Positions 5,098-60,224 of a DNA stretch of 63,449 nt are shown piece after piece; positions within the stretch are counted from its first letter, which is position 1, and each line of letters starts with the position of its first letter. Location: positions 1-63,449 of the IMG/VR virus record IMGVR_UViG_3300012986_000064. One strand, given 5' to 3'. The translations under genes were made by a program, and so were the position numbers. Under the pieces are notes generated by a model, which saw only the letters and a program-made list of their open reading frames with translations, was not told the DNA's origin and ran no database searches. This DNA comes from a virus. Taxonomy: Duplodnaviria; Caudoviricetes.

Positions 5098-5099
5098 AA

Positions 5100-14041: not shown

Positions 14042-14067
14042 ATAATGTACGTAAAGTAAGTACATTA
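13928..14067 (-). repeat. Inverted repeat arm A (late element + first 38 codons of the tail gene)
   Basis: Reverse complement aligns with 22549-22692; 99/114 nt identical over the coding part by manual alignment. Confidence 0.9.
14043..14067 (-). promoter_or_regulatory. Late element copy 2
   Basis: TAATGTACTTACTTTACGTACATTA followed by T-ATG (leaderless start). Confidence 0.8.
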
Positions 14068-18678: not shown

Positions 18679-18966
18679 CTAGTAAAACAAAACCGCCCCG
18701 TCAGATTTTACGGCAACAGTATCCACTCGCTCGGTTTTGATGCCTGCGGAATCGGTTAACTCCCAATGGTTGGCATACCACAACTCGCCTAGCCGGGTGG
18801 CTTCTTTCATTGGTGGCTTTATTTTCCGCAACTCTATTGGCTTGTAATGACGAGGCGGGGCAATCAACGAGTTAAACTCTTTGGCAATGGCAGCCTCAGC
18901 TTTTTCCTCAGCAGAAGGGCCGCAACCAGCTAAAACCAGAGCACAAGCATAGAACAGTGTTTTCAT
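18679..18966 (-). CDS. Small lipoprotein moron (possible superinfection exclusion)
   Basis: MKTLFYACALVLAG-C lipobox; own promoter-like box a few nt upstream. Confidence 0.7.
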   Translation of the reverse strand: MKTLFYACALVLAGCGPSAEEKAEAAIAKEFNSLIAPPRHYKPIELRKIKPPMKEATRLGELWYANHWELTDSAGIKTERVDTVAVKSDGAVLFY

Positions 18967-18969
18967 GCC

Positions 18970-19008
18970 GCCAAGCTACGAAAAAGCCCCGGCTGACTAA
19001 CCGGGGCT
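18970..19008 (-). terminator. Terminator-promoter unit copy 1
   Basis: Minus strand AGCCCCGG-TTAGTCAG-CCGGGGCT TTTT CGTAGCTTGGC (hairpin, U-tract, TAnnTTGGC -7-like box). Confidence 0.8.
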
Positions 19009-19013
19009 CGCGC

Positions 19014-19793
19014 CTATACCACAGGGCGGTTTTTCAGAAAGAACGTGCCAGGGGGGAGGGTGTTTAGAATATCGACGGCCGAACTGAAGCATTCTGTATA
19101 CCCCGAAAATGCTTTTTGTGGTTTGTAGCTCAGAGTTTTGAACTGTCTGTGAATGGCTTTTTCCAGCTCAAACACCTCTCTGACGTTATAACTTTTGTAT
19201 AAAGCAACTGTCCGCCATCTGTAAGGCATTCTGCGGCTAAACCTGCCACTCAGATTAAAGCTTATACCAACCTTATAAAATAGCTCATTCTCGCCGGTCA
19301 GCTCTATTATATAGAGAGTGGCTCGCCTTCCGTTTTGCCGACATCCCCAGCTACTGGCTGACCAAGGGCCGCCCCCTGGCCGGCCAATATTGCCCTGCCT
19401 CTTTCCGCACTTGGGGCAACCTTGTCCCTTCAAGTGCGCGTGTGGTGTTTGGGTAAAATTGCCGTGTTCCAGGCAGGTAATAACTATGGCTTCCTCAGTA
19501 CCTGCGTAGTTAGCTTGCTTATAACAGTAACGCTCGCCATGAATTTCACGAGCCTCGACTATAAACTGCTCTGTGGTTTTGGTGTTGAATATAATTCGGG
19601 AGGAAGTAGCGCACTGAGGGCACCCTCTTCCCTGCAAGTGCCCTCTTGTACGTTGCAAGAACCCTCCGTGCTGAGAGCAAGCAATTTCTACGCACGTCCT
19701 TGCATTCACGTACTTGGTGCGCGTGTAGTCATATCGCTCACCATGCACAGCGCGAGCCTTGGCTATGAAAGCTTCTGTTGTTAAACGCTTCAT
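19014..19793 (-). CDS. DUF723-like Zn repeats + GIY-YIG (T5orf172/MUG113-like) endonuclease
   Basis: Two T(T)E.FI..A...HG.RY.Y...C..HG.F......HL.G.GCP.C repeats; LYII...YKVGIS...LEK.IH...G.TECF. Confidence 0.75.
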   Translation of the reverse strand: MKRLTTEAFIAKARAVHGERYDYTRTKYVNARTCVEIACSQHGGFLQRTRGHLQGRGCPQCATSSRIIFNTKTTEQFIVEAREIHGERYCYKQANYAGTEEAIVITCLEHGNFTQTPHAHLKGQGCPKCGKRQGNIGRPGGGPWSASSWGCRQNGRRATLYIIELTGENELFYKVGISFNLSGRFSRRMPYRWRTVALYKSYNVREVFELEKAIHRQFKTLSYKPQKAFSGYTECFSSAVDILNTLPPGTFFLKNRPVV

Positions 19794-19796
19794 AGC

Positions 19797-20570
19797 TTAC
19801 GAAGGCATAGACACAACACCATGCACCCGAAACCAGGCATACGCTCCCCACTGAAAGGGCAATTCCCGATGGGAGCGTCGGGGGTTACAGTCGTCGAAGA
19901 GGGTGAACAGACGTGCGCTGATGCGCTCATACGAATGGCACTTATGCACCCGCCCCACGTCGCTTAGTTTCAATACCCCATCAACCGGCTTCACCCGCAC
20001 CAGCACGTCGCCGGGTTGCACGTCCTCAAAAGCCCTAACCGGAACCACGGCAACCAGCGCCCCCTTTGGATATGCCGGGGCCATCTTATTGCTAGGAAAC
20101 ATGAACAGCTCGACCCCGCGCAGGTCGGGCGAAGGCTTGACAACACGTAGGCCCGTTTCCGGGCCTACGTGTTGGAGAATGGAGGCCCACAAGTTGCCAA
20201 TCTCGGCAACCGCGTCGGCTTCTTCTAGGCGGTTGATTTTTACCAGCGCCTGGGTGCGCTGCGCCGGCGTAACCCCCGGCAATTGCACCAACGCCTTAAT
20301 TTCTTCCTTTTGGGTAGCCGTGGCATACCGCACGGCGGGCCGCTGCCGACCTTCGCGGCTGGTCAGCTCCTTGCCAACATTGGCCGTCCACCGCACTAGG
20401 CGGCTGAGGCAGTTGCACTCATGCACGTTATGGTTAGCACGCAGCTGCTCCGCTTCCGTGAACAGGTCGTTGCCCACAATCAGGGCAAGCAGGTTGACGC
20501 GAAGCACGCCAATAGGGGTCTGGGCGTCGGCCACCTGGGCGACGTTTCCATGTTTGGGGGTGTTGTACAT
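19797..20570 (-). CDS. Putative antirepressor-like protein: helical ATAxQKE domain + degenerate S24-like C-terminal domain
   Basis: YATATQKEEI...INRL shared with 58148-58822; SNKMAPAYPKGALV aligns with GESMEPTFFGGDYV of CI but lacks the Ser. Confidence 0.55.
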   Translation of the reverse strand: MYNTPKHGNVAQVADAQTPIGVLRVNLLALIVGNDLFTEAEQLRANHNVHECNCLSRLVRWTANVGKELTSREGRQRPAVRYATATQKEEIKALVQLPGVTPAQRTQALVKINRLEEADAVAEIGNLWASILQHVGPETGLRVVKPSPDLRGVELFMFPSNKMAPAYPKGALVAVVPVRAFEDVQPGDVLVRVKPVDGVLKLSDVGRVHKCHSYERISARLFTLFDDCNPRRSHRELPFQWGAYAWFRVHGVVSMPS

Positions 20571-20578
20571 TTGTACAG

Positions 20579-20667
20579 TTGGGAAAGTGAGATTTTCCCA
20601 GCTTCAGAGGCAGCCCCTGCCAGGGCTGTTTCGGGAGGCCAGCCCCTGCCAGGGCTGGCCTCTTTTC
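20579..20667 (+). ncRNA. Predicted cis-antisense sRNA 1
   Basis: TACATTTG box at 20566-20573 on + strand, three hairpins, last (20635-20662) followed by TTTT. Confidence 0.55.
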
Positions 20668-20699
20668 CATTCCTCATCTACTGGTGTTCCCCTTTGGAA

Positions 20700-20797
20700 C
20701 GATACAAATGTACCAGTGCTTTTTTGGTGTTACAAGTTTTTTACCAAAAAAAAACCAAAATATCTTTGGTATAATTGCAGTGTATTACATTTGCAGA
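20700..20797. promoter_or_regulatory. Divergent promoters with putative RHH operator array
   Basis: TACATTTG boxes on both strands (minus ~20705-20712, plus 20786-20793); repeated TTTGGT/ACCAAA half-sites between them. Confidence 0.6.
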
Positions 20798-20965
20798 ATG
20801 AAAAAGGAAAAAGCCGAGCGCACCGGGAAAAAGCAGATAGGCCTAGAAGTAACTGCTGCCGAAAAAGAGTTGGCCGAAAAGGTAGCCGAGGCCAGAGGGC
20901 TCGGTCTCTCTGCATTGGTAAGGCTGCTGATTAAGGACGAGGCTCGCCGCTTGGGTATCGAGTAG
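20798..20965 (+). CDS. Ribbon-helix-helix (CopG-like) regulator, 55 aa
   Basis: KQIGLEV strand followed by two helices, ending LSALVRLLIKDEARRLGIE; leaderless after TACATTTGC. Confidence 0.75.
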   Translation: MKKEKAERTGKKQIGLEVTAAEKELAEKVAEARGLGLSALVRLLIKDEARRLGIE

Positions 20966-21735: not shown

Positions 21736-22514
21736 TTAATCGGTTTTGTTTTTCTCTATCAGGTAGTCGATGGCCGAGTGGAAGTCGAACAGCGTCAGCT
21801 CCCCGGCGCGGGGAAAGCCCTGGTCAGCCAGGGCCGCGCAGAGCTTGCCAAACCGCTGCTGCTTTTCCACGACCACGTTGCGCGGGTCGCCGTCGTCGAA
21901 GATGTCCGGGCGGGCCAGGTCCAGCAGGTAGCTGTCGATTTCCTGCAGCGTATCGATGTGCGTCGCCTCGCCTGTTAGCACGAAGTCGCAGACCGCAACC
22001 ACCCGCCGCTGCAGCTGCCGGGCGTAGGCCTGGGTTTCGGCATCGGCGCTGAAGCGGGCCGGGAAGTAGGTGCTCAGCTCCGCCGGAAGTTTTTTTTTAC
22101 GTCGGTGAGCAGCTCGCTCACCTGGCCTTGCGTCAGCCCCATCGCGCTGAGCCGTAGCAGCAGCTCCTTCAGCCCCTGCTCGCTCAGGTCCGTAACCGGC
22201 ACGCCATCCACGGCCGCGACCAGGCAGCCAAAGGCCAGCTGCGTGGGGTCGAACTTCTCCAGCATGAACTGCACGTTGTAGTGCAGGTTGGCCAGCTCGT
22301 CGGCGGCCTCGCCCAGGCGGTGCGGCTCCTGCTGGGCGGCTACCATCAGCGCTGCCAGCTGCTCGAAGTGGCGCTGCACTGCGCCTATGCTGGAGCCGAT
22401 GCCGGCGGCTTGCACCAGGTACTGCTGCATGGTGGCGTGGCGCCCGGCGGGCAGCTCGAAAATGCTTTGGTACAGGCTGACGTGGTGGGCGTCGCCCAGG
22501 GGAACGGTTTGCAT
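21736..22514 (-). CDS. Tail assembly chaperone GT form produced by -1 programmed frameshift
   Basis: A9 run (22090-22098); the -1 frame is open (LPAELSTYFP...) into ORF 21736-22002. Confidence 0.75.
22074..22514 (-). CDS. Tail assembly chaperone G form (146 aa)
   Basis: Ends ...DVKKNFRRS over the slippery GTA AAA AAA AAC. Confidence 0.75.
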   Translation of the reverse strand: MQTVPLGDAHHVSLYQSIFELPAGRHATMQQYLVQAAGIGSSIGAVQRHFEQLAALMVAAQQEPHRLGEAADELANLHYNVQFMLEKFDPTQLAFGCLVAAVDGVPVTDLSEQGLKELLLRLSAMGLTQGQVSELLTDVKKNFRRS

Positions 22515-22548: not shown

Positions 22549-22692
22549 TTAATGTACTTACTTTACAAACATTAAACCATGAGCACCCTCCTCGCCCAGA
22601 ACTCGCCCCGCTTTCGCTACACCCTGGATAGCGACATTTTAGGCCCGTTCGTGCTCAAAAACGACCCCATTGGCTGGGATGAGTTGGGCAAG
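22549..22692 (+). repeat. Inverted repeat arm B (late element copy 4 + tail-gene N-terminus)
   Basis: TTAATGTACTTACTTTACAAACATTAA (22549-22575) then MSTLLAQNSPRFRYTLDSDILGPFVLKNDPIGWDELGK. Confidence 0.9.
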
Positions 22693-22836
22693 TGGGAAAA
22701 GAGCAGCCATCCGTACATGTCGGATAGCTGCCCACCGAGCCGCTTAGGCAAAGCCTTTTCAGGCTGCCAGACTTCCACCCGGAAACCGGCTGGCAGAACC
22801 AAGGTAACGAGTTGCGAGCAATGGCGGTATCCTTAG
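22579..22836 (+). pseudogene. Truncated copy of the tail gene 11828-14041 (38 homologous codons, then unrelated sequence)
   Basis: 35/38 aa identical to the N-terminus of the full gene. Confidence 0.8.
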
Positions 22837-24839
22837 TCTAGTGCATCTTTCGGCATTAAACCGAACTGCTTAAGGAGGTAGCGCACGTCTTTATTGGGAA
22901 GAGAGCGCCACCCCGCAGCGGTGTTTACTAAAACAAAAGTTGGTGGCTCGATATAAGCATACGACATATCCCCTAGAGCTGCCCTGTTTTGATTCTGAAG
23001 AAGCTGCCACCCCTTCCCTTTTGCATATTTTTCGAATAACCTTGTTGAAGCTATATCTACCATAACATTGCCTATCCTATCAGGAGGCAAATTGTACGCT
23101 TCTAAAATTCTTCTGGCGAAGAACTCCATGTCGGCATCGGAATAGTCTTGTAGCTTTTTTGGCTCTTCGAGTGATTGTTGCATTCCATAATAAGCCTCCT
23201 CTACAACCGAGACAAATTTCCTTATCCCCGTTCTCTTCTCTAATTCAATCAGGCAATTTTCGATTTCCTGGTAATCTGCGGTGTTAAGGCTTATACCAAA
23301 ACACTTCTCCGCCATGAATCTAATGTCATACGAGGTGCCGAGGGCGACATGGGCATCTTTGTAAAGCGCACATTCTATTAAACAATTGTAGGCACTGAGC
23401 GCTAGTTTAAGATGTGTTTCGTATACTTTATCTAAGTCAGCAGAAGCCGAACGGGATTTACCTGCGAAGACCAGCATGGAGGTAAACTGCGATGATTGAA
23501 ACATTTTAGCCAAAGCAAGCATCGCATACCCCAGTACTCTCTTATTGTCGCTACCTCTATACTCCTTGTATATTGACAGCACGCGTTCACGGCTTTTTTC
23601 TGATAATGACAGCAAATAAGATGCTATCTTAACCCGCTGTGGTTCTGGGGAAAGTGCGCCTAACCGTTCCTGTATTCTAATATTATATCCGTGCTTAAAG
23701 ATTAGCTTGTCTGTGTATATGTATAGATTTTCAGCATTAAATACCTGCAAGGCGGCCTTGCTTTCCGCAGTCAAGCCTGATGCCTCAATTTCACTAAAAA
23801 TAGAGTCTATTTGTTGCTCTATGGTTTCATCAACCACTTCATTGGCAAATGTGTGCAGGAGCAACGTGTAGACAATATTAATTTTGAAACCGAGAATATT
23901 GGCCTCGTTTTTTGCTGATTTAACCAACTCACTGAGAATACCACCCAACTCTTCGGTGGTTATTTCTCCTTTCAGGAAGCTTGTCCTCGCTTTTGTAAAA
24001 TGCAGCAGTTCCTGTTCAGTAGGCGAGAATGAATCAATTTCGTTGAAACACCGGCGCAAGAATGGTTCGGCTTCAATAATGTACCCGGCGCTCCCATAGG
24101 TAATTGCACCAATAAAAAGGAGCTTGTTTGACTTGTTTATAACAGCGGCGGGCAACTGCTCCAGCATCCATAATAGCATGTCCATTGAATCAGTGTTCAA
24201 AAGGCCATGACCATATTGCTCCAAAAACCTAGTGATGTTTTGAGGGCTACTGAAGTCTATTTCATCCGGCGACTTGATATGCTCACTAAAAACAGGGATA
24301 CCATAGCTCTGACCATGTTTGGTGAGCATAAGGCTCTGATTCTCATGTCTGGCAAGCATTTTCTTGTGAAGTGCTTTAGCAGACTCTTCGTTTAATTCAT
24401 TTGTCTCAATGTAAATCGTTGCGTTTGCCTGGCTTTTCCATTCCGGGTTGTATTCATCAAGCCTGGAGACAACCGAATCTACATAATCGAAGTAGCTTTT
24501 ATTTCCTATCTCATCAAACAGGACAATAATTCCATATGCTGGTGGCCTTTTGCACAGGTACCCCAAACGAGAGGTTTTAAAGGTAAGTGTACAATATTGG
24601 ATCCCGTTTTTGGTGGTGAGCTTCACCTTGCCGGTACTCTTGATTTGTACAGCAAACTTTTGAGATGATGCCCGCTTATCCGGGGTTACGAGTTCCACAT
24701 CCATGTCAACCCCGTAGTCCGGAGTCTCTTCGCGGCACAGGAACCCGTTACGACGGGTCAGTACACACCGGACGGCATTTACCGACTCCTCGCTTCTTAT
24801 AGAGTTGTCATCAACTTCTGGTTCGTCTGAAAAGGCCAT
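22833..24839 (-). CDS. DUF4365 (PD-(D/E)XK-like) + helical/TPR-like protein, candidate anti-phage effector
   Basis: REETPDYGVDMDVE...FAVQIKS motif; long helical C-terminus; AT-rich. Confidence 0.75.
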   Translation of the reverse strand: MAFSDEPEVDDNSIRSEESVNAVRCVLTRRNGFLCREETPDYGVDMDVELVTPDKRASSQKFAVQIKSTGKVKLTTKNGIQYCTLTFKTSRLGYLCKRPPAYGIIVLFDEIGNKSYFDYVDSVVSRLDEYNPEWKSQANATIYIETNELNEESAKALHKKMLARHENQSLMLTKHGQSYGIPVFSEHIKSPDEIDFSSPQNITRFLEQYGHGLLNTDSMDMLLWMLEQLPAAVINKSNKLLFIGAITYGSAGYIIEAEPFLRRCFNEIDSFSPTEQELLHFTKARTSFLKGEITTEELGGILSELVKSAKNEANILGFKINIVYTLLLHTFANEVVDETIEQQIDSIFSEIEASGLTAESKAALQVFNAENLYIYTDKLIFKHGYNIRIQERLGALSPEPQRVKIASYLLSLSEKSRERVLSIYKEYRGSDNKRVLGYAMLALAKMFQSSQFTSMLVFAGKSRSASADLDKVYETHLKLALSAYNCLIECALYKDAHVALGTSYDIRFMAEKCFGISLNTADYQEIENCLIELEKRTGIRKFVSVVEEAYYGMQQSLEEPKKLQDYSDADMEFFARRILEAYNLPPDRIGNVMVDIASTRLFEKYAKGKGWQLLQNQNRAALGDMSYAYIEPPTFVLVNTAAGWRSLPNKDVRYLLKQFGLMPKDALD

Positions 24840-24911
24840 CGCCTGGGGAATTTGAAATAGTCCGGCCAACTATAAAGAAGGCAAGCACGTGGACCAGATT
24901 TTTAAATATGG

Positions 24912-25652
24912 CTAATCTGCAGATGGGCTTGAGGCAACAGGTGCGCTGCAGGCTTTCAAAAAAGCAATTCCCAGCTTTGTAGGACCAATGTTAGCTGTCC
25001 CGTAACCAGTCGCCATTGAAAGTTCTGGTGTACCACCTTTAATAAGTTCATTGAGTGCTTGAATCATTGAGACGGTGCCAGCGACTATACACAGACGAAG
25101 GCGAACTAAGTTATCTAACGCAACGTCAAATTCATCGCCCGAAATACCCTCTTTTACAACCGCTTCTTTGATGAAGTTGGTATCCATCATGAATAAAGAA
25201 CCGGCTTTCTTTATGCCGCCACGTGATTCAGGAAACAGGGCATTGAGAATTCGTACATGGATAGGGCCGAGCTGCTTCATAATTTCTATGAAACCACTAT
25301 CAAATTTTGCAACTGAATGAGGGTTGGCTGCATTTGCCAGCAAATTGGCCCATGTTTTCTGAAGGAATTCATCTTCTTCCAGGGAGGCGCTTTCTATAAG
25401 GGGAACTAATACCTTAAAAGGTACTTCTTGAGGTTCAATGTTGGCTTCAACCAGTACATTGCCAGCGTCTATTAATACCTTCGCTCCCGCCTTCGCTCGC
25501 AATCCTTTTACATAGTCCCTGCCTGCCTCTCCAATCTCTTCGAGTGCCGGCTTAAATACAGTGCTGAGTGCTGGACGAGCGGCCTTTATTATGCCTACGG
25601 CAGTTACCGTCTGCGGCATGGCTTGGATAATGGTAGTCAACAGGTCAGACAT
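24912..25652 (-). CDS. Abi-alpha (DUF4393) family protein
   Basis: PLIESASLEEDEFLQKTWANLLANA, FIEIMKQL, LDNLVRLRL, T.LG..F..AC. Confidence 0.8.
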   Translation of the reverse strand: MSDLLTTIIQAMPQTVTAVGIIKAARPALSTVFKPALEEIGEAGRDYVKGLRAKAGAKVLIDAGNVLVEANIEPQEVPFKVLVPLIESASLEEDEFLQKTWANLLANAANPHSVAKFDSGFIEIMKQLGPIHVRILNALFPESRGGIKKAGSLFMMDTNFIKEAVVKEGISGDEFDVALDNLVRLRLCIVAGTVSMIQALNELIKGGTPELSMATGYGTANIGPTKLGIAFLKACSAPVASSPSAD

Positions 25653-25672
25653 AGCGAAGGAATAAGTGAATT

Positions 25673-25707
25673 GCCAAGCTACAAAAAGCCCCCGGCTTGT
25701 GGGGCTT
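25673..25707 (-). repeat. Terminator-promoter unit copy 2
   Basis: + strand GCCAAGCTACAAAAAGCCCCCGGCTTGTGGGGCT. Confidence 0.85.
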
Positions 25708-25750
25708 TCTAAAACTCATTAGCCATGACTGCTTATGTAGCAAGGAACAA

Positions 25751-26848
25751 CTAATGTAGTCCCCCTGTATTAGCTGAGTGTTTGGGTAACATATCTGGCT
25801 TCTTAATGGGAATAGGGCAGCAGACTGCGTGTCCCTGTGTTATCCAATGATTGAGGGCATACTCCATTACACACGGATTGAACTCCGGCTGGCATACACT
25901 CGACAACTCCCGGCCGATTTTGGTTAGTACTACCACACCTGCCTCAATGACAGGGTAATCTCCTGCCTCTTTGGATTCAATTTCGACCTTTTCGCCATTA
26001 TAGGACAAGACAAGAGTCTGCGCGCCATAGGTATACCCTCCAAGGGCGGGTGAAAACTCAATTAGGCCAATATCGTGCAGGTGCTGTAGGTCGCTATACC
26101 CTAGAACATCTACTGAGTAACCTTCTGGGTCTGTGCCAAAAAGAATGATATCAGCTTGACCAGATGGTAACACCCAAAGGAATGCACACAACTTCCGAAA
26201 ACTTAAGGCCTCCTCATTGGTCAGGGTTGCCAAAAAGTCAACGGTTCGGGCCGAGAAGCTACCCGGTTGCTTGATTTCACCAGCGAGGATTTTCCCAAAA
26301 ATCAACTGCATTTCTTCGCTGGAAATATCCTGGGCCGTCCGGAAGTATCGGGTAGCCCAGTCCGGGTCAACTGGCTTATCGGACACGTCCGGCTCATCCA
26401 GCAGCTCGGCTGCAGCGTGAACCACGGCACTGTCCCGATTAAGTTGTTGGAGCATATTCTCGTAAGCTATGCGAAGCTGGCTCCGACGGTGTAAATCCTG
26501 CACTTCCTGCGGCATTCCCTTAAGCTCCGCTTGTACACCTGCATCCGTAATCGTGAGGCTTTCTAAATGGAGGCCACTGCGAGCCAGCTCGGTAATAATA
26601 CGCGCCTTCTCTTGAGCTACCCGCGTGTGTGCCGCGCCAGTCACCTGGATGCGATAGGCTTCATTATCCGCATTGGTCTTTGCAAGCCACTTTGCGCCAA
26701 TAAGGCGACCAACTGCGTCGGCTAAACGTCCACCGCCTGCTTGCACCAGTCCAGCCAACTTCTCAATTCCTTTGCCTCCACCCAAAAGGTCAGAAACGTT
26801 GAGACTAAATAATGCTTTGTCCCCTGATTTAGTGTTCTCCTCTGCCAT
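25751..26848 (-). CDS. DUF2806 family protein
   Basis: VDPDWATRYFRTAQDISSEEMQLIFGKILAGEIKQPGSFSART. Confidence 0.85.
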   Translation of the reverse strand: MAEENTKSGDKALFSLNVSDLLGGGKGIEKLAGLVQAGGGRLADAVGRLIGAKWLAKTNADNEAYRIQVTGAAHTRVAQEKARIITELARSGLHLESLTITDAGVQAELKGMPQEVQDLHRRSQLRIAYENMLQQLNRDSAVVHAAAELLDEPDVSDKPVDPDWATRYFRTAQDISSEEMQLIFGKILAGEIKQPGSFSARTVDFLATLTNEEALSFRKLCAFLWVLPSGQADIILFGTDPEGYSVDVLGYSDLQHLHDIGLIEFSPALGGYTYGAQTLVLSYNGEKVEIESKEAGDYPVIEAGVVVLTKIGRELSSVCQPEFNPCVMEYALNHWITQGHAVCCPIPIKKPDMLPKHSANTGGLH

Positions 26849-26873
26849 TGCACTTAACTCTGCGTGTTAAGCT

Positions 26874-26915
26874 GCCAAGCTACACAAAAAAGCCCCGGCT
26901 TGTGGGGCCGGGGCT
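26874..26915 (-). repeat. Terminator-promoter unit copy 3
   Basis: + strand GCCAAGCTACACAAAAAAGCCCCGGCTTGTGGGGCCGGGGCT. Confidence 0.9.
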
Positions 26916-26922
26916 GTATACT

Positions 26923-27954
26923 TTATTTGGTTAACATCTCCCATAGAAAAATGAGTCCAGCCCTCATAAAGGGCACTAGAAAACCCCCAATCAAAAGTGT
27001 AAATACTAAAAATTTAAATACATCGGCAGTAGACAAGGCTCGCCTTTTAGACGTTCCTATTGCGACAGCTGAACTAGGTGTGAGTAACGGCAAGTAAGTA
27101 TATGCAAGGTAGAAAGCACCCAGCCCTAAAGAAAATACGATTACGACGCTAGCAAGCATCTCAACGAAGTGGCTAGGTTTGGGTGACAGCTGCCAGTTAA
27201 AGTAGTAACTAAGCTTATCTTCAATCCTCACTGCTGCATTGATGCGCTTTAGTACTTTTAAAGCTTCTTTTTCATTGGTAATATCCACATATTTATCAAC
27301 TTTTTTAAATCCCCATATCAGTAATGCGATTGTAGTTAGTGCGCCAATAGTTTGTACAAACCATTCTTTCTGAAATATCCATAGTGGACGCATGATACCA
27401 CCATGAGCAGTCGTTTTTGCCATAGGTACTAAATCATCAAATAATTGGTCAACCCAGCGTTGATCAGAACCTGATACTATAATTTCTATCTTAGCTTTAA
27501 GAAAGTGATTGCGCTCATCGCGTCCGGTTTTAAAACGCTTTTCTGTTATAAATAACAGTTCAACATGCCCAGAAACAGCTTCTCCATTGCTGTCTATGGC
27601 AAATTTGCTCCATGTTATCTTAATGCTCAACGGGTCCTGACGCTTCCCTGCCCTATCAAGGAAGTGTTCAAAGCTATCAAATCGTTGAGTTGATAAGTCC
27701 TCAAAGCGAACTGCCCCTACGAAATCAATGCTTTCAGTTATACTTATAGTGTCCAACTGCTTATTAATCTCCTTATTAAACTCTTCTAATTGGTTGTCAG
27801 TTATAAAAAAAGGAAAGTATAAAAGCTGCTCGCGCTTATAACGCCGTAAATCATCCGCAGCCAAGCGGTTCATAAATTTAAACAGCCTAGTAGCTTTTGT
27901 ATCCTCTAGCGGGAGTGCCATCACTTTAGTATTAGGGTCGCTTTCGTTTTGCAT
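26923..27954 (-). CDS. Hypothetical protein, soluble N-domain + 3 TM
   Basis: AT-rich 343-aa ORF with C-terminal hydrophobic helices. Confidence 0.75.
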   Translation of the reverse strand: MQNESDPNTKVMALPLEDTKATRLFKFMNRLAADDLRRYKREQLLYFPFFITDNQLEEFNKEINKQLDTISITESIDFVGAVRFEDLSTQRFDSFEHFLDRAGKRQDPLSIKITWSKFAIDSNGEAVSGHVELLFITEKRFKTGRDERNHFLKAKIEIIVSGSDQRWVDQLFDDLVPMAKTTAHGGIMRPLWIFQKEWFVQTIGALTTIALLIWGFKKVDKYVDITNEKEALKVLKRINAAVRIEDKLSYYFNWQLSPKPSHFVEMLASVVIVFSLGLGAFYLAYTYLPLLTPSSAVAIGTSKRRALSTADVFKFLVFTLLIGGFLVPFMRAGLIFLWEMLTK

Positions 27955-27994
27955 AAGGGGTAGGTCTTTGTAAGGTTAAGTAATGCCCATCTTT

Positions 27995-28023
27995 TGGGCT
28001 GCCTATTTGATGTTGAGGCGGTA
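27995..28023 (-). repeat. Degenerate RHH 3'-tail remnant 4
   Basis: TACCGCCTCAACATCAAATAGGCAGCCCA; 21/29 nt match to remnant 2. Confidence 0.45.
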
Positions 28024-28041
28024 GGTCAAGAACAAGGTAAT

Positions 28042-28080
28042 GCTAAGCGACGAAAAAGCCCCAGCTTGTGGAGCTGAGGC
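28042..28080 (-). repeat. Terminator-promoter unit copy 4 (degenerate)
   Basis: + strand GCTAAGCGACGAAAAAGCCCCAGCTTGTGGAGCTGAGGC. Confidence 0.8.
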
Positions 28081-28095
28081 CAATGAATGGCGCCC

Positions 28096-28902
28096 TTAAC
28101 GAGTAGGTGGAACAGTAGGGGGCCCCAGCCCTTCCAACTGATAGAACAAGGCACTAAGGAACGAGAGCCACTCTAGCGCCCGGTTCACCTCCTCTAGTTC
28201 CGTTAAATTGTGGGCGTAATGGTTGCGCAGAGCCTGCACCGAGCCTTGAAACAGATTCATAAACCCCATTTGTTCGTTTGGGTCGTGCGACAATAGTAGG
28301 AGCGGGTTCTTGGGGGAAAAAGCTGTTGTCATCAAGGTAGTTCCCGTGGTGGTGGGGAGGCCCGCTCGAACCTGCACGGCTTTGTCCAACGCAATACATA
28401 CGTCGAGTATGGCCTGCCGATAGTGACCGTTAGCGAATAGCGGGCCGGCCACCTTATGTACGACCGGGTGTAGATGGGCCAGCGATTGAAAATCGACGGT
28501 TTCTAATTCTGAAGTGTTGGCAAGGGGGTTTGATTGGTTGGATTCTTCAGCAGGTTCTTCTTCCTCAAATAGTATCTGCGTTTTTAGCAGCTGGAGCCAC
28601 TGTTCAAAAATATGCAGAACCGCCCGCCAGTCATCAATCGGTCCATGAATAGTCTGCTCCTTTGTAGCCAGGATTAATTTCCCTGCCTTAGGCGTAGAGT
28701 AGGTATAAAGCCGCATTTCCTTCCCCGTGTTGGCGCCACTGAAGACAACCTCTTTGGCTTCCACCAAAAAATAGAAGTCGCTCGCTTCATGAACTACCCT
28801 AATGGAGTTTTTTGTGGGCTCAACAATCTTAAACTCGCTCCATCTCAATCCCAAGCCCTTAACGGTATTGAGTAGAGAGTTTTTTTGATTTTGAAGAAAC
28901 AT
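28096..28902 (-). CDS. TIGR02391/Ymh HEPN-like domain protein with extra N-terminal domain
   Basis: LHPVV...LFANGHYRQAI...LMTTAFS...EQMGFMNLFQG...LRNHYAH (RxxxxH). Confidence 0.85.
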   Translation of the reverse strand: MFLQNQKNSLLNTVKGLGLRWSEFKIVEPTKNSIRVVHEASDFYFLVEAKEVVFSGANTGKEMRLYTYSTPKAGKLILATKEQTIHGPIDDWRAVLHIFEQWLQLLKTQILFEEEEPAEESNQSNPLANTSELETVDFQSLAHLHPVVHKVAGPLFANGHYRQAILDVCIALDKAVQVRAGLPTTTGTTLMTTAFSPKNPLLLLSHDPNEQMGFMNLFQGSVQALRNHYAHNLTELEEVNRALEWLSFLSALFYQLEGLGPPTVPPTR

Positions 28903-28925
28903 GGTAGGTATTACTTGGTCGGCAC

Positions 28926-28955
28926 CTCAATACCCAGACGGAAGGCTTCATTGAG
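28926..28955 (-). repeat. RHH 3'-tail remnant 3
   Basis: Translates LNEAFRLGIE versus KDEARRLGIE. Confidence 0.6.
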
Positions 28956-28975
28956 GGCTGGCCAATGAAGATAAT

Positions 28976-29398
28976 CTAAGAGGGCTTTTTGTTAAACCAT
29001 CCGCGCGCATAGGGGTGCAGGATAGGCGCTAAACTGCTGCCGGCAACCAAGGCAATGCCAGCGTACATCATAAGGTAATAAAGCCCTGTGTTCTTGTCTG
29101 GGATTGTCTGCCCTGTAATGAAGTTGGTGGCAATACCGATTAGTAACGAGCCAATTAGGCTACCTAAGGCCGAGAAAGCCGCTGTAAAAGGCGAGGTTTT
29201 GAGGTATTCTAGCTGAGCCGTCAGGTCATTGATAATAGCATCCTTCTCCTTAACCTTTTTTGCTTCCAGATTGTGAGAGTTTATAAGTTGACGGATTGCG
29301 ACATCGTTATTTTTTAATTCATCTGCAGCAATCTGAGATACGCCACCGCCTTCATAGATGAGCGAGGTATCCGGGTTTGGTATAACAACGGAGCCCAT
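28976..29398 (-). CDS. Coiled-coil + 2-TM protein
   Basis: Two hydrophobic helices; 3 nt downstream of partner gene. Confidence 0.75.
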   Translation of the reverse strand: MGSVVIPNPDTSLIYEGGGVSQIAADELKNNDVAIRQLINSHNLEAKKVKEKDAIINDLTAQLEYLKTSPFTAAFSALGSLIGSLLIGIATNFITGQTIPDKNTGLYYLMMYAGIALVAGSSLAPILHPYARGWFNKKPS

Positions 29399-29401
29399 AA
29401 C

Positions 29402-29761
29402 TTATTGCGATACAGTTTTTTTATACCAAGTGTAGTGCAGGGTTTTGCTAATGCTTTCTATATGATACACCCTATAACTGAAGTATAAGCCAATTTTTCG
29501 CGTTACATCAAGCCAACCCGTTAATAAGGGGTCATGATTGCCGACCCCCATTGGATTATTAAAGTTAAAAAACTTAATAATCAGCGTCTTTTCTCCTTCA
29601 GGTTCGGCCTCCAATCGATATGCATTGGTTTTGTCATCATTGAAAAAGACCAACTTGAATATTAAATCTTGTACCCTAAAGACGATTGGCTTATCGTCTA
29701 TTCCGATAACAGTACCGCTACCAAGTACTTCATATTCGCTTATATTAACTTGAATGTTCAT
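29402..29761 (-). CDS. DUF6864-like beta protein
   Basis: SGTVI...L.F.F..D...L.I.F.NFNN.MG.G...LYFSYRV...LHYTWY pattern. Confidence 0.65.
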   Translation of the reverse strand: MNIQVNISEYEVLGSGTVIGIDDKPIVFRVQDLIFKLVFFNDDKTNAYRLEAEPEGEKTLIIKFFNFNNPMGVGNHDPLLTGWLDVTRKIGLYFSYRVYHIESISKTLHYTWYKKTVSQ

Positions 29762-29818
29762 AGTTAGACAAAAACATTAAATTGGATGACGGTCTTTTTT
29801 GTAAACACTCTGGGCTGA

Positions 29819-29878
29819 CTATTCTATGCCAAGGCGGCGGGCCTCGTCCTTAATCAGTAGTCTTACCAACATAGACAT
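29819..29878 (-). repeat. RHH 3'-tail remnant 2 (mini-ORF MSMLVRLLIKDEARRLGIE*)
   Basis: 17/19 aa identical to the RHH C-terminus; nucleotide differences mostly synonymous. Confidence 0.9.
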
Positions 29879-29904
29879 TATAGTTTGCGAGGGCTGAGTT
29901 GGCC

Positions 29905-30657
29905 TTATTGCAACAGGTCAGTTGCAGAGGGTAGATGCAAAGCACCCTTTACAATTTGAGAAATAATCTCCTTTTGAATAATTGGGTATACTTCTTTAAT
30001 CCATTTCAAGCTCCCCTTCTGGATTTTGGCAAAAAGCTTTGATAACTTGCTAAAGGTTTCTCTTTTTGTGGAAGTGGTAATGCTATCCTTAATCTGCTCA
30101 GCTTCCTGTATTAAAGCCGTAATGCTTTCTTGATTGGCCTCGTCCCTTTTTGCCTCAAGCTGATAGATGACTTTAGTTATTGCTTCATCTAAAAGTAACT
30201 GCTGTTCAAGTGAAAAACTGTTCACAGTTGCATCCGCGTCGGCACTTTCAAACTTGGCATCAAAGTCTTCTTCGTACTTCTTCAGGATAGGGTCATCAAA
30301 TATTGTATTAATAGACCTATATTCATCAACTAACCCCAACCATTGAGTTAAGACTTTGCCAAATGATTCCACCTTCATTGTTACAACAAGCCGGTTAATA
30401 TCTACTTCACTTGCTGGTATGTACGCAGCTAGTAGGTGAAGTGCGCCATCTCTTACCTCTGCTTTATTAAGACTGAAGCTGAATCTAGAACCTTCGTCAT
30501 TATCCCATATAGTGAATAGTCCCTCATCTTTGCTTGTGTCGATAACATAGTGTCCAGACCTAAGTCTTTCATTAAACGGCTCAAGCGCCTTTAATAATGC
30601 GAGCGGAATTTCCTTTTTCATGTTGACTGCTATGGTTGATAAGTGGGAGCTTGACAT
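29905..30657 (-). CDS. Hypothetical protein (alpha/beta N-domain + helical C-domain)
   Basis: AT-rich 250-aa ORF preceded by a terminator-promoter unit. Confidence 0.8.
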   Translation of the reverse strand: MSSSHLSTIAVNMKKEIPLALLKALEPFNERLRSGHYVIDTSKDEGLFTIWDNDEGSRFSFSLNKAEVRDGALHLLAAYIPASEVDINRLVVTMKVESFGKVLTQWLGLVDEYRSINTIFDDPILKKYEEDFDAKFESADADATVNSFSLEQQLLLDEAITKVIYQLEAKRDEANQESITALIQEAEQIKDSITTSTKRETFSKLSKLFAKIQKGSLKWIKEVYPIIQKEIISQIVKGALHLPSATDLLQ

Positions 30658-30711
30658 GCCGTTGTATGTGAAGCTAGCATATGCTTAGCTAACGCGCTTT
30701 GGCAAGGTGCT

Positions 30712-30755
30712 GCCAATCTACGAAAAAGCCCCAGCTTGTGGGGCCAGGGCTTTTT
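30712..30755 (-). repeat. Terminator-promoter unit copy 5
   Basis: + strand GCCAATCTACGAAAAAGCCCCAGCTTGTGGGGCCAGGGCTTTTT. Confidence 0.9.
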
Positions 30756-30765
30756 GTACATCTTA

Positions 30766-31209
30766 TTAAACGGTTATTTTAAGTTCGGGCTCTCCCTTTT
30801 TCTTTTTCGTAAAAACGAGCTTTTGCTTCTTAGCATCCGGAGCCACTTTGTAAAGCCCTTCGTCCATTGTAATGGCATCAATGACTTTGTTCAAAAACTC
30901 GGTTCTGGCCTCCCTGGTAATGTTCTCGCTCCCTTCAGGCCCGGTTTTAGGGTGAACATACATCAGGTACAAGCAATTCTCCTTGATTATGGCAAGGAAA
31001 TAAACCCTGTATCCACCGCTGCCCTTAATGCGCTTTTTTACATAAGGCATGGTTTCCGAAGCGTTCAGTAGCGTACCGTTTCGTGCTTCAGCAATCGTCT
31101 TGCCATGAAAATGCTTCAAAACTTCAGCTTCTAGCGAAGCATACGACTTGTACTTGCTTAGCTTCTCAATCTCAACCTTAAAATCATCTAGGCAATACAA
31201 GTCTAGCAT
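30766..31209 (-). CDS. RelE/HigB-like toxin
   Basis: F...I.KL...Y.SL..E...KKRI.GSGGYRVYF...LYLMYVHPK. Confidence 0.7.
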   Translation of the reverse strand: MLDLYCLDDFKVEIEKLSKYKSYASLEAEVLKHFHGKTIAEARNGTLLNASETMPYVKKRIKGSGGYRVYFLAIIKENCLYLMYVHPKTGPEGSENITREARTEFLNKVIDAITMDEGLYKVAPDAKKQKLVFTKKKKGEPELKITV

Positions 31210-31691
31210 AGGCTTTCCAGTCTTTTGTTGGCATTCTGGAAATCCTCGTCTTGCGGCAAGACAAATACGACATCGTGTAGGTCAGCTGCAAGCTCTTTGA
31301 AATCATCAATTGTTGATTTGAATTCGGTGAGTTCTGCTTTCCCTATTTTATGTGTAGCAAAATAACGGCTGACAAGAACGTAGTTTTTCACCAGTAGGCT
31401 GTGCAAACTGTGCATCAGGCCGACGATTTTCCGCATATCCGCCAAAAACTCTTCAGTGGGGTTTGACAATGACCACGTAAAGGCTTCCAGCTTCGGCATA
31501 ATATCCTCTAAATCATTTATCGTTTCTCTCATATATTCTTTCCTATACAAGATGCCATCAAGGAAGTCATTAACCTTCTTCTCCAGCTCGGCAGCTTTTG
31601 AAGTTTCCCTGACAGTGACTTTTTCGAACGCTCCAAAAATTGATTGGAGTTGCTCTTTCTGTCCTGTCCGGTCGATAACGAGTTCGCTCAT
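31203..31691 (-). CDS. Putative antitoxin, all-helical, no HTH
   Basis: Overlaps the toxin start; acidic coiled-coil protein. Confidence 0.55.
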   Translation of the reverse strand: MSELVIDRTGQKEQLQSIFGAFEKVTVRETSKAAELEKKVNDFLDGILYRKEYMRETINDLEDIMPKLEAFTWSLSNPTEEFLADMRKIVGLMHSLHSLLVKNYVLVSRYFATHKIGKAELTEFKSTIDDFKELAADLHDVVFVLPQDEDFQNANKRLESLC

Positions 31692-31845
31692 AATACAGTC
31701 GTTGCAATGCCCAAAAGTGGGCTAAAGATAGTTTTTTGTGACCGAGTTGAATCGGGTCCCCTACAAATGTAACGGCTCAACGCATTCCCCAAACTATTTG
31801 TTCGAACATCTTAGACCATTGGAGAGGTCCAAGTGCTAGGGCTGG

Positions 31846-31881
31846 CTACTCGATGCCTAAGCGGCGGGCTTCGTCCTTAAT
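31846..31881 (-). repeat. RHH 3'-tail remnant 1
   Basis: ATTAAGGACGAAGCCCGCCGCTTAGGCATCGAGTAG = IKDEARRLGIE*, only synonymous differences from 20930-20965. Confidence 0.9.
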
Positions 31882-31882: not shown

Positions 31883-32158
31883 CTACTCTGCTGGCCATCT
31901 GCTGTAGAACGCACGACAAACAGCAGCCGCAGGAAATGCAGCCAGTATATGCCACGCCGATATTTCGGATACGGCCATATAAGCCGCAACTTGAAACAGG
32001 CTGAGATAGAAGCCCGCGCAGAAGTCGCAGCGCTTCATCAGCCACGCGGGGCGCCGGACCTCCCAGGCCTGGAGCCAGCCCCACTTCGCAAAGCAGAGCA
32101 GCAGGGTAGCCGACGTGAGGCCGGCGAGCAGGGCGAGGGTTAGTAGTTGGGTGAGCAT
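31883..32158 (-). CDS. Small membrane protein with CxxC (CDFC), structural-module gene
   Basis: MLTQLLTLALLAG...RCDFCAGFY; hydrophobic. Confidence 0.7.
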   Translation of the reverse strand: MLTQLLTLALLAGLTSATLLLCFAKWGWLQAWEVRRPAWLMKRCDFCAGFYLSLFQVAAYMAVSEISAWHILAAFPAAAVCRAFYSRWPAE

Positions 32159-32227
32159 AGTCGTGTAAATTGGGCTATGGGAAAAGAACGCCAGGCCGGA
32201 ATTGCGGGGGAAAACATCACAATCAGG

Positions 32228-32404
32228 ATGATTCCCGAGTTTGAGTTGAGCGCGGAAGTGGACCGCCAAACCGCAGCTTGGGGGGCGTTAGATGACTTAG
32301 ACAAAGGCCTGAGTCCTGACGACGTGTACACGATTTACGGGCTTAGCGTCGCAGATATTGAGCCTTACCGGGCTACTTGGCCCAGCAGGCGCCCTTTAGC
32401 ATAG
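32228..32404 (+). CDS. Possible 58-aa antisense-oriented moron
   Basis: MIPEFELSAEVDRQ...; fills the gap between two minus-strand genes. Confidence 0.4.
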   Translation: MIPEFELSAEVDRQTAAWGALDDLDKGLSPDDVYTIYGLSVADIEPYRATWPSRRPLA

Positions 32405-33303: not shown

Positions 33304-33743
33304 AGTCCTAATTCGTCACGGGTTTTCTCCAGCAGCTCAGGTTTCACGTAGTCCTGCCGAAACTCTTCCAGGGCCGCATCGGAGAGGCCCAGAATGTCTT
33401 CGCCGTACTTCCCCGTCAGGCCCGGCGTTTTAACATCGGTGCCCACCATCTCGACTTCCCCGCTGCGCACGTCGGCCACGATACCGGAGTAGAAGTCGCC
33501 CTCGTCGCGCAAGGTAACACGGTCCACGGGCTGACCTTTCAGCTGTTTTATCGCCCTGGTGAGGGGGGCATATTCCGGCGTAATGTCCTGCCCATCGGCA
33601 TCTTTTCCCTGAGCCAGCTGCGCCGTGTTGGCATCCTCCAGCACGTGCCGGTTCGCGTCTACCACGTCGGCCGTGGCAGCTTCGAGGGTAGCCGGCAGCC
33701 GCTTCAGGGCCTGGGCAAGCGCTTCGAGGCGGGCGAGGCTCAT
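33300..33743 (-). CDS. Neck/tail-completion protein (gp10-like)
   Basis: VTLRDEGDFYSGI...KYGEDILGL pattern; position. Confidence 0.65.
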   Translation of the reverse strand: MSLARLEALAQALKRLPATLEAATADVVDANRHVLEDANTAQLAQGKDADGQDITPEYAPLTRAIKQLKGQPVDRVTLRDEGDFYSGIVADVRSGEVEMVGTDVKTPGLTGKYGEDILGLSDAALEEFRQDYVKPELLEKTRDELGL

Positions 33744-34087
33744 AGGGTTTTGATATACTGCATGTAGCCTTCGTGGCCCGCCATGAAGGGTGCAAATCCT
33801 AGCGATTTATAAAGCCGCTGAGCTCCCTCGTTTTTATCGGCAACCGTCAGAGCCACCAGTGTTTTTCCCATCTCGCGGCACAAATCAAAAGCCCGGTTCA
33901 GCAGCTGTTTGCCAACTCCTTTGCCTCGGTACGGTTCCTCCACAAACAGCGCGCCTATCCAGCCAGCGGGCTCGTTAATCTCAAGCCTGAGCATACCTAC
34001 AGGTTGCAAGCCTTTGTTGTGCGCAAACACATAGATGGCCGTTGGCTTATCCGTGTCGATTTGAACGCTGAGCTCTGAAAGGGTCAT
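33740..34087 (-). CDS. GNAT acetyltransferase
   Basis: LFVEEPYRGKGVGKQLL, LTV...NEGAQRLYKSLGF. Confidence 0.9.
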   Translation of the reverse strand: MTLSELSVQIDTDKPTAIYVFAHNKGLQPVGMLRLEINEPAGWIGALFVEEPYRGKGVGKQLLNRAFDLCREMGKTLVALTVADKNEGAQRLYKSLGFAPFMAGHEGYMQYIKTL

Positions 34088-34091
34088 GGGA

Positions 34092-34457
34092 TTAGGGCCT
34101 GAGGTCAGTATAGCGATAACCTTGAAATCCAGTGTGGGGAATAGGCTCATCCAGTGGATGCCAGTTGGCCAGAATAAGACTTTGGGTGGTGCGCTCTTTG
34201 CCGATGCCGTGCCGTTCGCGCCAATTCTCGGTAAGGTCGGTGTCTACGATGTCTAAGTAGCCCCGAATGAGCCCGTCGTATATCATGAAGCACTGCGCAC
34301 CGGTGCCGCTCTGCGTCGGCAGGCGCTGGCAGTTCACCAGCCAGAACCACTCGCCATCACCCCAGTCTGTGGTGCCGTCGCACCGGCGAAGTACCCGTTC
34401 GGCGGTGGGCCAATCCGGGTACTTGCTCTTAGGTATGGTAGTCAGGACGTTTTTCAC
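34092..34457 (-). CDS. Hypothetical protein (121 aa)
   Basis: Coupled to the upstream gene; ends GFQGYRY. Confidence 0.65.
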   Translation of the reverse strand: MKNVLTTIPKSKYPDWPTAERVLRRCDGTTDWGDGEWFWLVNCQRLPTQSGTGAQCFMIYDGLIRGYLDIVDTDLTENWRERHGIGKERTTQSLILANWHPLDEPIPHTGFQGYRYTDLRP

Positions 34458-60167: not shown

Positions 60168-60198
60168 TGTGTAGTGTTGTTAATGGTATTGCAAATAA

Positions 60199-60214: not shown

Positions 60215-60224
60215 AAAAGCAAGC

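Follow-up and report, generated by a model that had tools for sequence, protein, structure and literature searches.

How do eight small groups of unrelated genes come to stand in a row in a single slot of a phage genome? The question is raised by a provirus in the IMG/VR collection (record IMGVR_UViG_3300012986_000064, a Caudoviricetes virus; its 63,449 nucleotides (nt) are referred to here as the window), in which nearly all phage genes lie on the minus strand. Over positions 22833–31691, ten co-oriented minus-strand open reading frames (ORFs) form eight units, as an earlier note on this DNA had described; the array is AT-rich, with a GC content of 0.447 against 0.612 for the phage region at 32000–60000, and its genes and units range from 0.36 to 0.51. 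Its joints hold two kinds of recurring sequence: a terminator-like hairpin followed by a conserved box, and the 3′ end of a small ribbon–helix–helix (RHH) gene. With moderate confidence, we read the region as a moron and defence hotspot assembled by recombination at these conserved junction sequences, with no integron involved; the two sequences probably serve as the recombination handles. The description in the earlier note is largely borne out, and its interpretation in part. We take the host to be Hymenobacter because the source names on homologues of a 190-amino-acid (aa) protein of the virion block are Hymenobacter species, and genome comparisons were made against 165 Hymenobacter genomes.

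Junction sequences of the array

A robust junction element precedes six of the eight units and a weak one a seventh, where the earlier note had counted all seven alike. Four array junctions have the form of a hairpin (GCCCC-ACAAGCY-GGGGC), a T-run, and the box YGTAGCTTGGCAGC. The box consensus, TTTTTYGTAGCTTGGCRGC, includes a Bacteroidota-type −7-like motif (TAGCTTGG), which sits 12–63 nt before gene starts and by which promoters are predicted here. A DNA profile derived from 27 copies outside the window, all in other genomes, gives exactly five matches in the window, all on the minus strand, at 18967–18995, 25672–25692, 26871–26901, 28041–28067, and 30709–30737 (E 4.5e-9 to 5.4e-4; next match, E 0.031). 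These are the five places at which the earlier note had put a terminator-plus-promoter repeat, the promoter role being predicted from the motif. Within the array, the terminator-plus-box copies extend over 30703–30751 (hairpin, T-run, and CGTAGATTGGCAGC; E 1.8e-7), 28033–28081 (E 6.6e-5; followed by a decayed RHH-like stretch, see below), 26871–26915 (E 3.2e-6), and 25664–25712 (E 5.4e-4). The fifth copy, at 18966–19009 (minus strand; E 4.5e-9), comes after a T5orf172 nuclease-like gene and abuts the ATG of a gene for a 95-aa lipoprotein-like protein (18679–18966). The two copies that were folded, at 30703–30751 and 26871–26915, form strong hairpins (z −3.2 and −3.7, respectively). Hairpin similarity by itself was rejected as a sign of homology: the generic hairpin CCCCACAAGCYGGGG is a plain terminator without a box in two genomes (G057 and G069).

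The box recurs well beyond the window. With up to two mismatches, the box pattern occurs at 27 places in 20 of the 165 genomes, and its reversed control at none; it abuts the ATG of a signal-peptide-like ORF in seven places, and for seven the same contig carries an RHH gene or remnant at a distance of at most 15 kb, for which a rough estimate of the chance expectation is well under one.

The second junction sequence derives from the family of the resident RHH gene (20798–20965, plus strand; 55 aa), and its fragments stand before units 1 and 3 and, weakly, before units 4 and 5. Remnant 1 (31839–31881, minus strand; E 4.9e-6) comprises the last 12 codons of the gene (31846–31881) plus the tail CCAGCCC, and abuts the stop of a 128-aa gene; compared with the resident gene, 8 codons are identical, 4 differ synonymously, and none differ non-synonymously. 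Remnant 2 (29812–29877, minus strand; E 1.5e-11) comprises the last 17–18 codons (29819–29872) plus the tail TCAGCCC, and it matches positions 37–54 of the protein profile (E 7.6e-9); 10 of 18 codons are identical to the resident gene and 7 differ synonymously, the single non-synonymous change lying at the far upstream edge. Because the core differences are synonymous only, the two remnants come from other functional RHH alleles, as had been proposed, and not from the resident gene. In both, similarity ends after the motif nCAGCCC. Two further remnants had been claimed. A possible remnant 3 (28926–28951, minus strand) reads EAFRLGIE by eye and is not significant (E 4.4), and a weak remnant 4 (27996–28038, minus strand), a decayed RHH-like stretch ending TAG GCAGCCC, has no profile match and is 60% identical to remnant 2 in ungapped comparison.

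Partial RHH copies were counted with profiles run on fetched loci totalling about 1.1 Mb and on loci added afterwards, one match inside a 1097-aa ORF being dropped. Among the 19 partial copies in the window and eight other genomes (the contexts of those in L133, L134, and L136 are known from ORF maps only), all are 3′ ends; 15 consist of the last 36 nt or less, with the break just upstream of GAYGARGCC codons (Asp-Glu-Ala), and the other four are longer. A degenerate codon pattern for DEARRLG was discarded as a census tool: it matched 84 places in 54 genomes and its reversed control matched 13, and about 14 of the 84 represented one unrelated conserved gene.

The RHH module and its cargo in other genomes

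The intact RHH gene belongs to a module. In the window (19014–20965), the module has its full three-gene form, with the RHH gene divergent from a gene for a 257-aa protein (19797–20570, minus strand) and, beyond it, a T5orf172 (GIY-YIG-type) nuclease-like gene with zinc ribbons (19014–19793, minus strand; phrog_681, E 2.1e-47). The N-terminal domain of the 257-aa protein is conserved beside RHH genes, and its C-terminal half is S24/S26-like, as in LexA/CI-type repressors (a lead only). RHH protein matches were found at 70 places in 48 of the 165 genomes (including the unpublished G115), and the gene is divergent from a homologue of the 257-aa N-terminal domain (g257) in 25 of 30 fetched loci. 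The T5orf172 gene is a third member in a subset of genomes: such genes occur in 22 of 165, and lie within 3 kb of RHH at 11 of about 29 T5orf172 loci. The neighbours of the module include Tn3 transposase, integrases, ParA, AbiEii, HipA, Fic and Panacea domains, a TOTE-system protein, DUF2806 together with an ADP-ribosyltransferase-like gene, tape-measure genes of other prophages, and a Cas6/Cas7/Cas5 set; some RHH loci have ordinary host-like genes as neighbours instead.

Two observations concern the surroundings of the RHH gene. A palindromic 18-mer, CAGCCCCTGCCAGGGCTG, is present in two exact copies (20611–20628 and 20640–20657) between the divergent 257-aa and RHH genes; these are candidate operator sites. 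Behind some RHH genes, a conserved element of about 50 nt (...CATGTGCGGCG.AGCCGACATAGGCCACCTTTTGCGCGGGG...) directly follows GCCAGCCC; it is found after the RHH stop in L034 and L043, recurs within arrays (L128 9661–10174 and 12085–13704; L123 54–120), and belongs to no Rfam family.

Scanning with models of both repeats, as the earlier note had proposed, shows that the box and RHH 3′ fragments both recur at the joints of other Hymenobacter arrays, which carry HEPN, Abi-alpha, TIR, SIR2, and KAP genes; several of these arrays lie downstream of an intact RHH gene belonging to a T5orf172/repressor-like/RHH module. In G133:C119, the T5orf172, g257-like, RHH, 105-aa, HEPN, 342-aa, and Abi_alpha genes follow one another, co-oriented, in that order. 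In G114:C11, a 5′-truncated RHH gene is followed by a 179-aa gene, a mini-RHH ORF, HEPN, an RHH fragment, a 193-aa gene, Abi_alpha, and a box, and then by further genes, another box, and SIR2. Homologues of the window payload are therefore found beside RHH genes, intact in the first case, an outcome in favour of the earlier note, which had named their absence there as a refutation. In G114:C10 (L137/L138, 6000–39268), two complete inward-facing T5orf172/g257-like/RHH modules surround 8.3 kb of low-GC cargo with TIR, Abi_alpha, a box, an RHH fragment, and others; the layout of this inverted pair is reminiscent of a composite element. G052:C2 is an integrase island at a tRNA-Leu gene, in which HEPN is followed by an RHH fragment, four to five boxes, and a KAP NTPase gene, and G055:C39 has the same junction grammar. 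The contexts of the RHH module and the box include prophages, tRNA-linked islands, and the vicinity of transposases and of CRISPR-Cas genes. The proposal that the units were morons taken from two variable slots of related phages is too narrow for this distribution.

A mini-RHH-like ORF or remnant of about 37 aa (roughly SFTD.EY.KLG...LGRSEYI..LGL.K; L121 5304–5438; L120 10796–10908; L128 ~12900–13020, minus strand; L131 1440–1530) lies just upstream of HEPN in G133 and G114 and is also present in the G052 and G139 arrays. It may act with HEPN as an antitoxin-like partner, although the HEPN gene of the window has nothing equivalent ahead of it. Short tandem repeats that look like iterons stand at array ends, namely GAAATAAGCCGC-like units in G133 (L121 8330–8470) and TTTTTTCGCAAATCCTTTGAC-like units in G052 (L128 ~12300–12500, minus strand).

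One explanation that these loci suggest, doubtful in our view, is a dedicated cassette platform: an integrase-free gene-capture system shared by Hymenobacter mobile elements, in which the three-gene module is the site of both acquisition and expression and the last ~30 nt of the RHH gene are the insertion point. The nuclease of the module, or some recombinase, would cut the RHH 3′ end, and units tagged with ~30 nt would enter by break repair or site-specific exchange, so that the newest unit is expected beside the RHH gene, with one tag left per unit. If true, tagged cargo would be drawn in at nuclease breaks, defence genes would pile up under the RHH promoter, and a homing endonuclease would drive what is functionally an analogue of the integron. 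The uniform break point of the short partial copies fits such a cut, as do the sharp end of homology past CAGCCC in remnants 1 and 2 and weak remnant 4, and the drop in remnant quality away from the array head (the first two significant, the third and fourth not). The association of T5orf172 with RHH, the bracketing of cargo by the G114:C10 module pair, and the co-oriented cargo downstream of RHH in G133, G114, and G139 point the same way. However, the window array is not headed by an intact RHH gene, the resident module being 2 kb away and facing the opposite way; G052 has remnants without a T5orf172 homologue, and about 59 of the 70 RHH places have no T5orf172 gene nearby. Moreover, the four longer partial copies start at profile nt 1–13, unlike the product of a fixed cut site, the nuclease target is only supposed, and the RHH fragments have no attC-type secondary structure, folding no better than shuffled sequences on both strands (z +0.05 to +1.5).

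The slot in related phages and the array borders

To compare the slot, an alignment of 24 homologues of the 190-aa protein was used as query, which gave 10 genome and 7 viral loci, 17 in all and 14 of them distinct (52–64% identity); when the two flanking genes were used singly as protein queries against viral contigs, one gave a weak locus and the other none. The order capsid block, 147-aa, 111-aa, 190-aa, and 128-aa gene is the same in all loci of the relatives, and the 128-aa homologue directly follows the 190-aa gene in 14 of 14. In the window, this 128-aa membrane-like protein (31883–32269, minus strand), which has no Pfam or PHROG match, forms the upstream border of the array. The slot after it contains 1.0–4.7 kb of unrelated DNA in the 11 of 14 relatives where it is measurable, against 9.4 kb in the window. 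Beyond the slot, the relatives have either the tape-measure gene or a pair of genes termed p146 and p88, each in either orientation. Homologues of the ten payload genes are absent from the slot in all 14 relatives, one Abi_alpha homologue lying 7 kb away in L014; both repeats are also absent at the nucleotide level from these loci, except for one weak box match in L015. Because its content differs among relatives, the slot is best seen as a variable module boundary, of which the window has by far the largest content seen; a fixed array content, which the earlier note had named as a refutation, is not what the relatives show.

The same slot is occupied differently in the related phage G139:C119, where four tRNA genes, two RHH fragments, a box, and unrelated small genes stand after the 128-aa gene.

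The earlier note had placed the array between two tail-module genes, which is roughly so: the flanks are the 128-aa gene, which follows a block annotated as ‘tail protein’, and a gene matching phrog_8914 (‘virion structural protein’). At the distal border (22550–22691, plus strand) lies a 142-nt inverted duplicate, 86% identical in nucleotides, of the start of a 745-aa gene (13929–14067, minus strand) that follows the tape-measure gene; the duplicate is 92% identical over 38 aa and is a rearrangement scar. The two inverted copies, at 13929–14067 (minus strand) and 22550–22691 (plus strand), bracket an 8.5-kb segment from the tape-measure gene to p146, and the relatives show three orders or orientations of the tape-measure gene, the p146–p88 pair, and the 745-aa gene, which suggests recurrent inversions in the tail region. 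The 146-aa (22074–22514, minus strand) and 88-aa (21736–22002, minus strand) ORFs of this pair correspond to the N- and C-terminal parts of the 250 positions of phrog_8914, and are split identically in all relatives where they were found; they could be a two-gene form or a programmed frameshift. A gene for a 136-aa acetyltransferase-like protein (33740–34150) shifts position among relatives (L013, L015, L008, and L010), being located ahead of the 147-aa gene, in the interval from the tape-measure gene to p146, or behind an RHH gene, and so behaves as a mobile accessory gene.

These borders bear on a further explanation, which we hold to be improbable: that illegitimate recombination brought in the array already assembled, in one block or two, from a chromosomal island or other element, its repeats having been inherited and not used as handles here. 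The truncated inverted duplicate at the distal border is the kind of scar that illegitimate rearrangement leaves, and at the other end the stop of the 128-aa gene is directly adjoined by remnant 1, which lacks the 5′ part of RHH. Similar arrays exist in tRNA-linked islands, the order HEPN...Abi-alpha is found in G133 and G114 as well, and 14 of 15 phage relatives lack the junction grammar. Yet a matching block was found in none of the 165 genomes, the GC content of the units is widely spread, and the units differ in the genome and context of their nearest homologue (G146, G061, G133, and G158). Block transfer would in any case account for the arrival and not for the origin of such arrays, and is compatible with assembly at junction sequences one step back.

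Proposed assembly of the array

Under the reading that we favour, in which recombination at conserved junction sequences assembled the hotspot, the region would be a hyperplastic hotspot where two modules of a temperate Hymenobacter phage meet, made up of eight self-contained units of foreign composition. The box element may act as a stop-then-restart signal that travels with accessory genes, often abutting the next ATG in other genomes. The RHH tag would be the last 30–55 nt of a small regulator gene, the intact form of which heads cargo operons within the T5orf172-nuclease/repressor-like/RHH module. Units formerly located downstream of RHH genes, or between boxes, would have been joined by recombination at these conserved stretches, through unequal or homeologous crossing-over, possibly via circular intermediates as known for the promoter early stem-loops (PeSLs) of T4-type phages. 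Stacking may have taken place in a shared pool of Hymenobacter mobile elements, not necessarily stepwise in the prophage of the window, and a dedicated cassette integrase would play no part. The repeats, their return at joints elsewhere, the tie of RHH genes to cargo, and the changing slot are observations; recombination as the mechanism, promoter activity, and a defence role are deductions. One unit gives an indication of how assembly might have occurred: flanked by two boxes in the window, the DUF2806 unit has no counterpart in G133 and G114 in the stretch from HEPN to Abi-alpha, and has the look of an insertion between boxes.

It is very unlikely that recombination had no role, with the box a common regulatory signal and the RHH fragments decayed regulator or antitoxin genes once owned by each unit: the box does abut gene starts and follow terminators, which makes a regulatory role plausible, RHH proteins are common as antitoxins and regulators (the resident one matches RelB_antitoxin weakly, E 0.0021, below the family cut-off), and mini-RHH ORFs precede HEPN genes in other genomes, but decay in place should leave random pieces where only 3′ ends are seen, mostly of 36 nt or less, the reading frame of remnants 1 and 2 is still open and their core changes are all synonymous, as expected of a truncated live allele and not of slow decay, and the loop CCACAAGCY is common to the four array boxes and lacking in copies from other genomes.

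Several results weigh against assembly at the junctions. The nearest phage backbone is 68% identical in protein, with no near-identical phage relative in the collections searched; the DNA of the array region (9.8 kb) has best matches of 68–71% identity over unit-sized stretches in the 165 genomes, and a metagenome scan with the DUF2806 protein gave 27 loci, the best 35–41% identical. Because no near-identical relative of the phage or of any unit was found, gains and losses cannot be assigned to a repeat with nucleotide precision; the DUF2806 comparison likewise involves proteins 36–60% identical, with no mapped breakpoint. The order HEPN...Abi-alpha is common to three genomes (the window, G133, and G114), and part of the array may therefore have come as a block. 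Random crossovers account less well for the short, uniform RHH fragments than would a more specific process or the inheritance of a single tag by common descent. In the RHH profile search of the window, remnants 3 and 4 fall short of significance, the junction grammar is present in 1 of 15 related phages (G139:C119), and the box could be kept purely for regulation, merely accompanying each gene.

One soil metagenome run contained 15% of the sampled words, with ten short, low-depth contigs over the region; nine of these are at least 99% alike to the window, the eight listed are identical, and no joints are among them. No RNA run was listed as containing the region.

Comparison with known systems

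Morons of lambdoid and other temperate phages, a concept of Hendrix and Juhala, are classically single insertions without shared junction sequences. The units resemble them in being additional genes of deviant base composition that lie between conserved late genes (here the 128-aa and phrog_8914 genes) and are absent from relatives, none of the 14 carrying the payload in the slot. Like morons, they would have a terminator of their own and probably a promoter: terminator-like hairpins are present at four array junctions, and promoters are predicted from motifs. They differ in their number, eight in a single slot, and in having homologous junctions that are found again across the genus.

The PeSLs are closer in this last respect. 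In the accounts cited here, they are short terminator/promoter composites repeated among non-essential genes of hyperplastic regions, with no dedicated integrase, and recombination between copies leads to indels, replacements, and mini-circles (Arbiol et al., 2010, PMC2839356; Comeau et al., 2014, PMC4122927). Here, in contrast, the phage is a temperate one of Bacteroidota, the element is also found in chromosomal islands, and the cargo is of putative defence type; the promoter motif is of type TAGCTTGG and not sigma-70, and there is a second junction class, a gene 3′ fragment. Recombination has been shown for PeSLs, whereas for the box it is deduced.

The orphan rhs-CT/rhsI and cdiA-CT/cdiI modules offer a parallel for the gene fragments: as described in the account cited, these displaced modules lie downstream of the main gene, and each retains a piece of the conserved gene, through which it can recombine homologously with the full-length copy (Koskiniemi et al., 2014, PMC3967940). 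In that account, the fragment lies within the payload frame and recombination re-expresses the toxin, whereas here it comes from the end of a small regulator gene distinct from the payload, with each unit predicted to be transcribed on its own. Full-length RHH genes head the G133 and G114:C10 arrays and not that of the window. For the defence hotspots of P2 and P4, the published abstract describes fixed positions between conserved phage genes with fast-swapping antiviral genes, shared with other mobile elements and cryptic chromosomal sites (Moura de Sousa et al., 2026, PMC13586616). The fast gene swapping and this sharing are likenesses; the abstract makes no mention of repeated junction elements or gene-end footprints within the locus, and the host phylum and phage type are different.

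Like an integron, the region is a co-oriented array of unrelated accessory genes with recurring short sites between them, and the earlier note had called it an integron-like archive, while remarking that neither attC sites nor a cassette integrase were visible. The absence is borne out, and the term stands as an analogy only. Pfam searches of the array and 42 further ORFs found a single integrase, at 62145–63449, 30 kb away, and the RHH fragments do not fold as attC sites would. The other junction consists of a terminator hairpin, a T-run, and the box, and the units carry predicted terminators of their own; with four intrinsic-terminator-like hairpins in the array, transcription from a single promoter is unlikely to run through all of it. 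The array is not an integron; PeSL cassettes and orphan Rhs modules are closer precedents.

Gene content of the units

Pfam and NCBIfam profiles identify five of the ten array genes, namely those for DUF4365 (678 aa), Abi_alpha (246 aa), DUF2806 (365 aa), Hypoth_Ymh/TIGR02391 (HEPN; 268 aa), and DUF6864 (119 aa) proteins; the other five have no Pfam or NCBIfam family. Four of the ten bear family names associated with defence: Abi_alpha, where the link stands in the name itself, and HEPN/Ymh, DUF4365, and DUF2806, where we presume it. Searches with PADLOC gave candidate or weak matches only, to PDC-S47 for the Abi_alpha protein and to Aga_HEPN and PD-Lambda-3_B for the HEPN protein, and none for the other eight. 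The HEPN, Abi-alpha, and DUF4365 domains named in the earlier note are recovered by profile; its RelE-like domain is not, since the 147-aa protein has no RelE profile match, and its predicted fold (TM score 0.60–0.63 to RelE/ParE clusters) is a lead only.

Unit 1 (30766–31838, minus strand) consists of a leader of ~147 nt, a 162-aa gene, and the overlapping 147-aa gene with the RelE/ParE-like fold, and the two genes are a probable toxin–antitoxin pair. Homologues of the unit occur in G146 (68% nucleotide identity over 969 nt) and G073, with ~150 nt of the leader conserved. This leader (31692–31838, minus strand) holds TTACATTTG and a small hairpin (compare L122 and L123) and is kept in G146 and G073 even with proteins merely 36–43% identical, so that it may be a regulatory 5′ region. 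Unit 2 (29905–30657, minus strand) encodes a 250-aa protein of no known family, 51% identical to a homologue in an unrelated low-GC context in G061. Unit 3 (28976–29761, minus strand) encodes the DUF6864 protein and a 140-aa membrane-like protein, the genes being spaced by 3 nt. Unit 4 (28096–28902, minus strand) is the HEPN gene, with homologues downstream of RHH in G133 and G114 and in the tRNA-Leu island of G052.

Unit 5 (26923–27954, minus strand) encodes a 343-aa protein of no known family with C-terminal hydrophobic segments; it has no detectable similarity to the 342-aa protein at the same relative position in G133. Unit 6 (25751–26848, minus strand) is the DUF2806 gene, with a box copy on each side; its homologue in G158 (46% aa identity) also has a box upstream, and that in G109 is convergent with an intact RHH gene. 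Units 7 and 8 (22833–25652, minus strand), the Abi_alpha and DUF4365 genes, are 42 nt apart with no junction element between them.

Other features of the window

Phage landmarks of the window include a terminase gene (41944–43509), the tape-measure gene (14077–18609), a CI-like repressor gene (60174–61175), and the Phage_integrase gene (62145–63449; Pfam) in the position of a prophage integrase. In addition to the main tape-measure gene, a second tape-measure-like gene (613–5244, minus strand; 1543 aa, PhageMin_Tail) is located at the left end of the record, and could be a second phage remnant or a duplicated tail gene. No annealing protein of the RecT/Erf/Red-beta type was found by Pfam among the 42 further window ORFs, on which PHROGs were not run. 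Rfam at gathering thresholds finds no family within the window, and ARAGORN finds no tRNA gene near the array; its sole call in the window is a tRNA-like gene at 56189–56268 (minus strand) with a four-base anticodon (cgac), for which Rfam at the gathering threshold makes no tRNA call, and which may be a false positive or a frameshift-suppressor-like tRNA.

Significance

Defence hotspots are known in phages and islands, and the route by which new genes enter them is mostly unexplained. A junction grammar of this kind across a Bacteroidota genus appears to be undescribed in the literature examined, which covered the analogues above and included no search aimed at Hymenobacter arrays. The conserved joints, a putative terminator–promoter box and a ~30-nt tag from a regulator gene, provide a searchable grammar for accessory and defence cargo in Bacteroidota, including genes without a family. 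They are also concrete substrates for asking whether defence genes are shuffled by way of short conserved regulatory sequences or by a linked nuclease.

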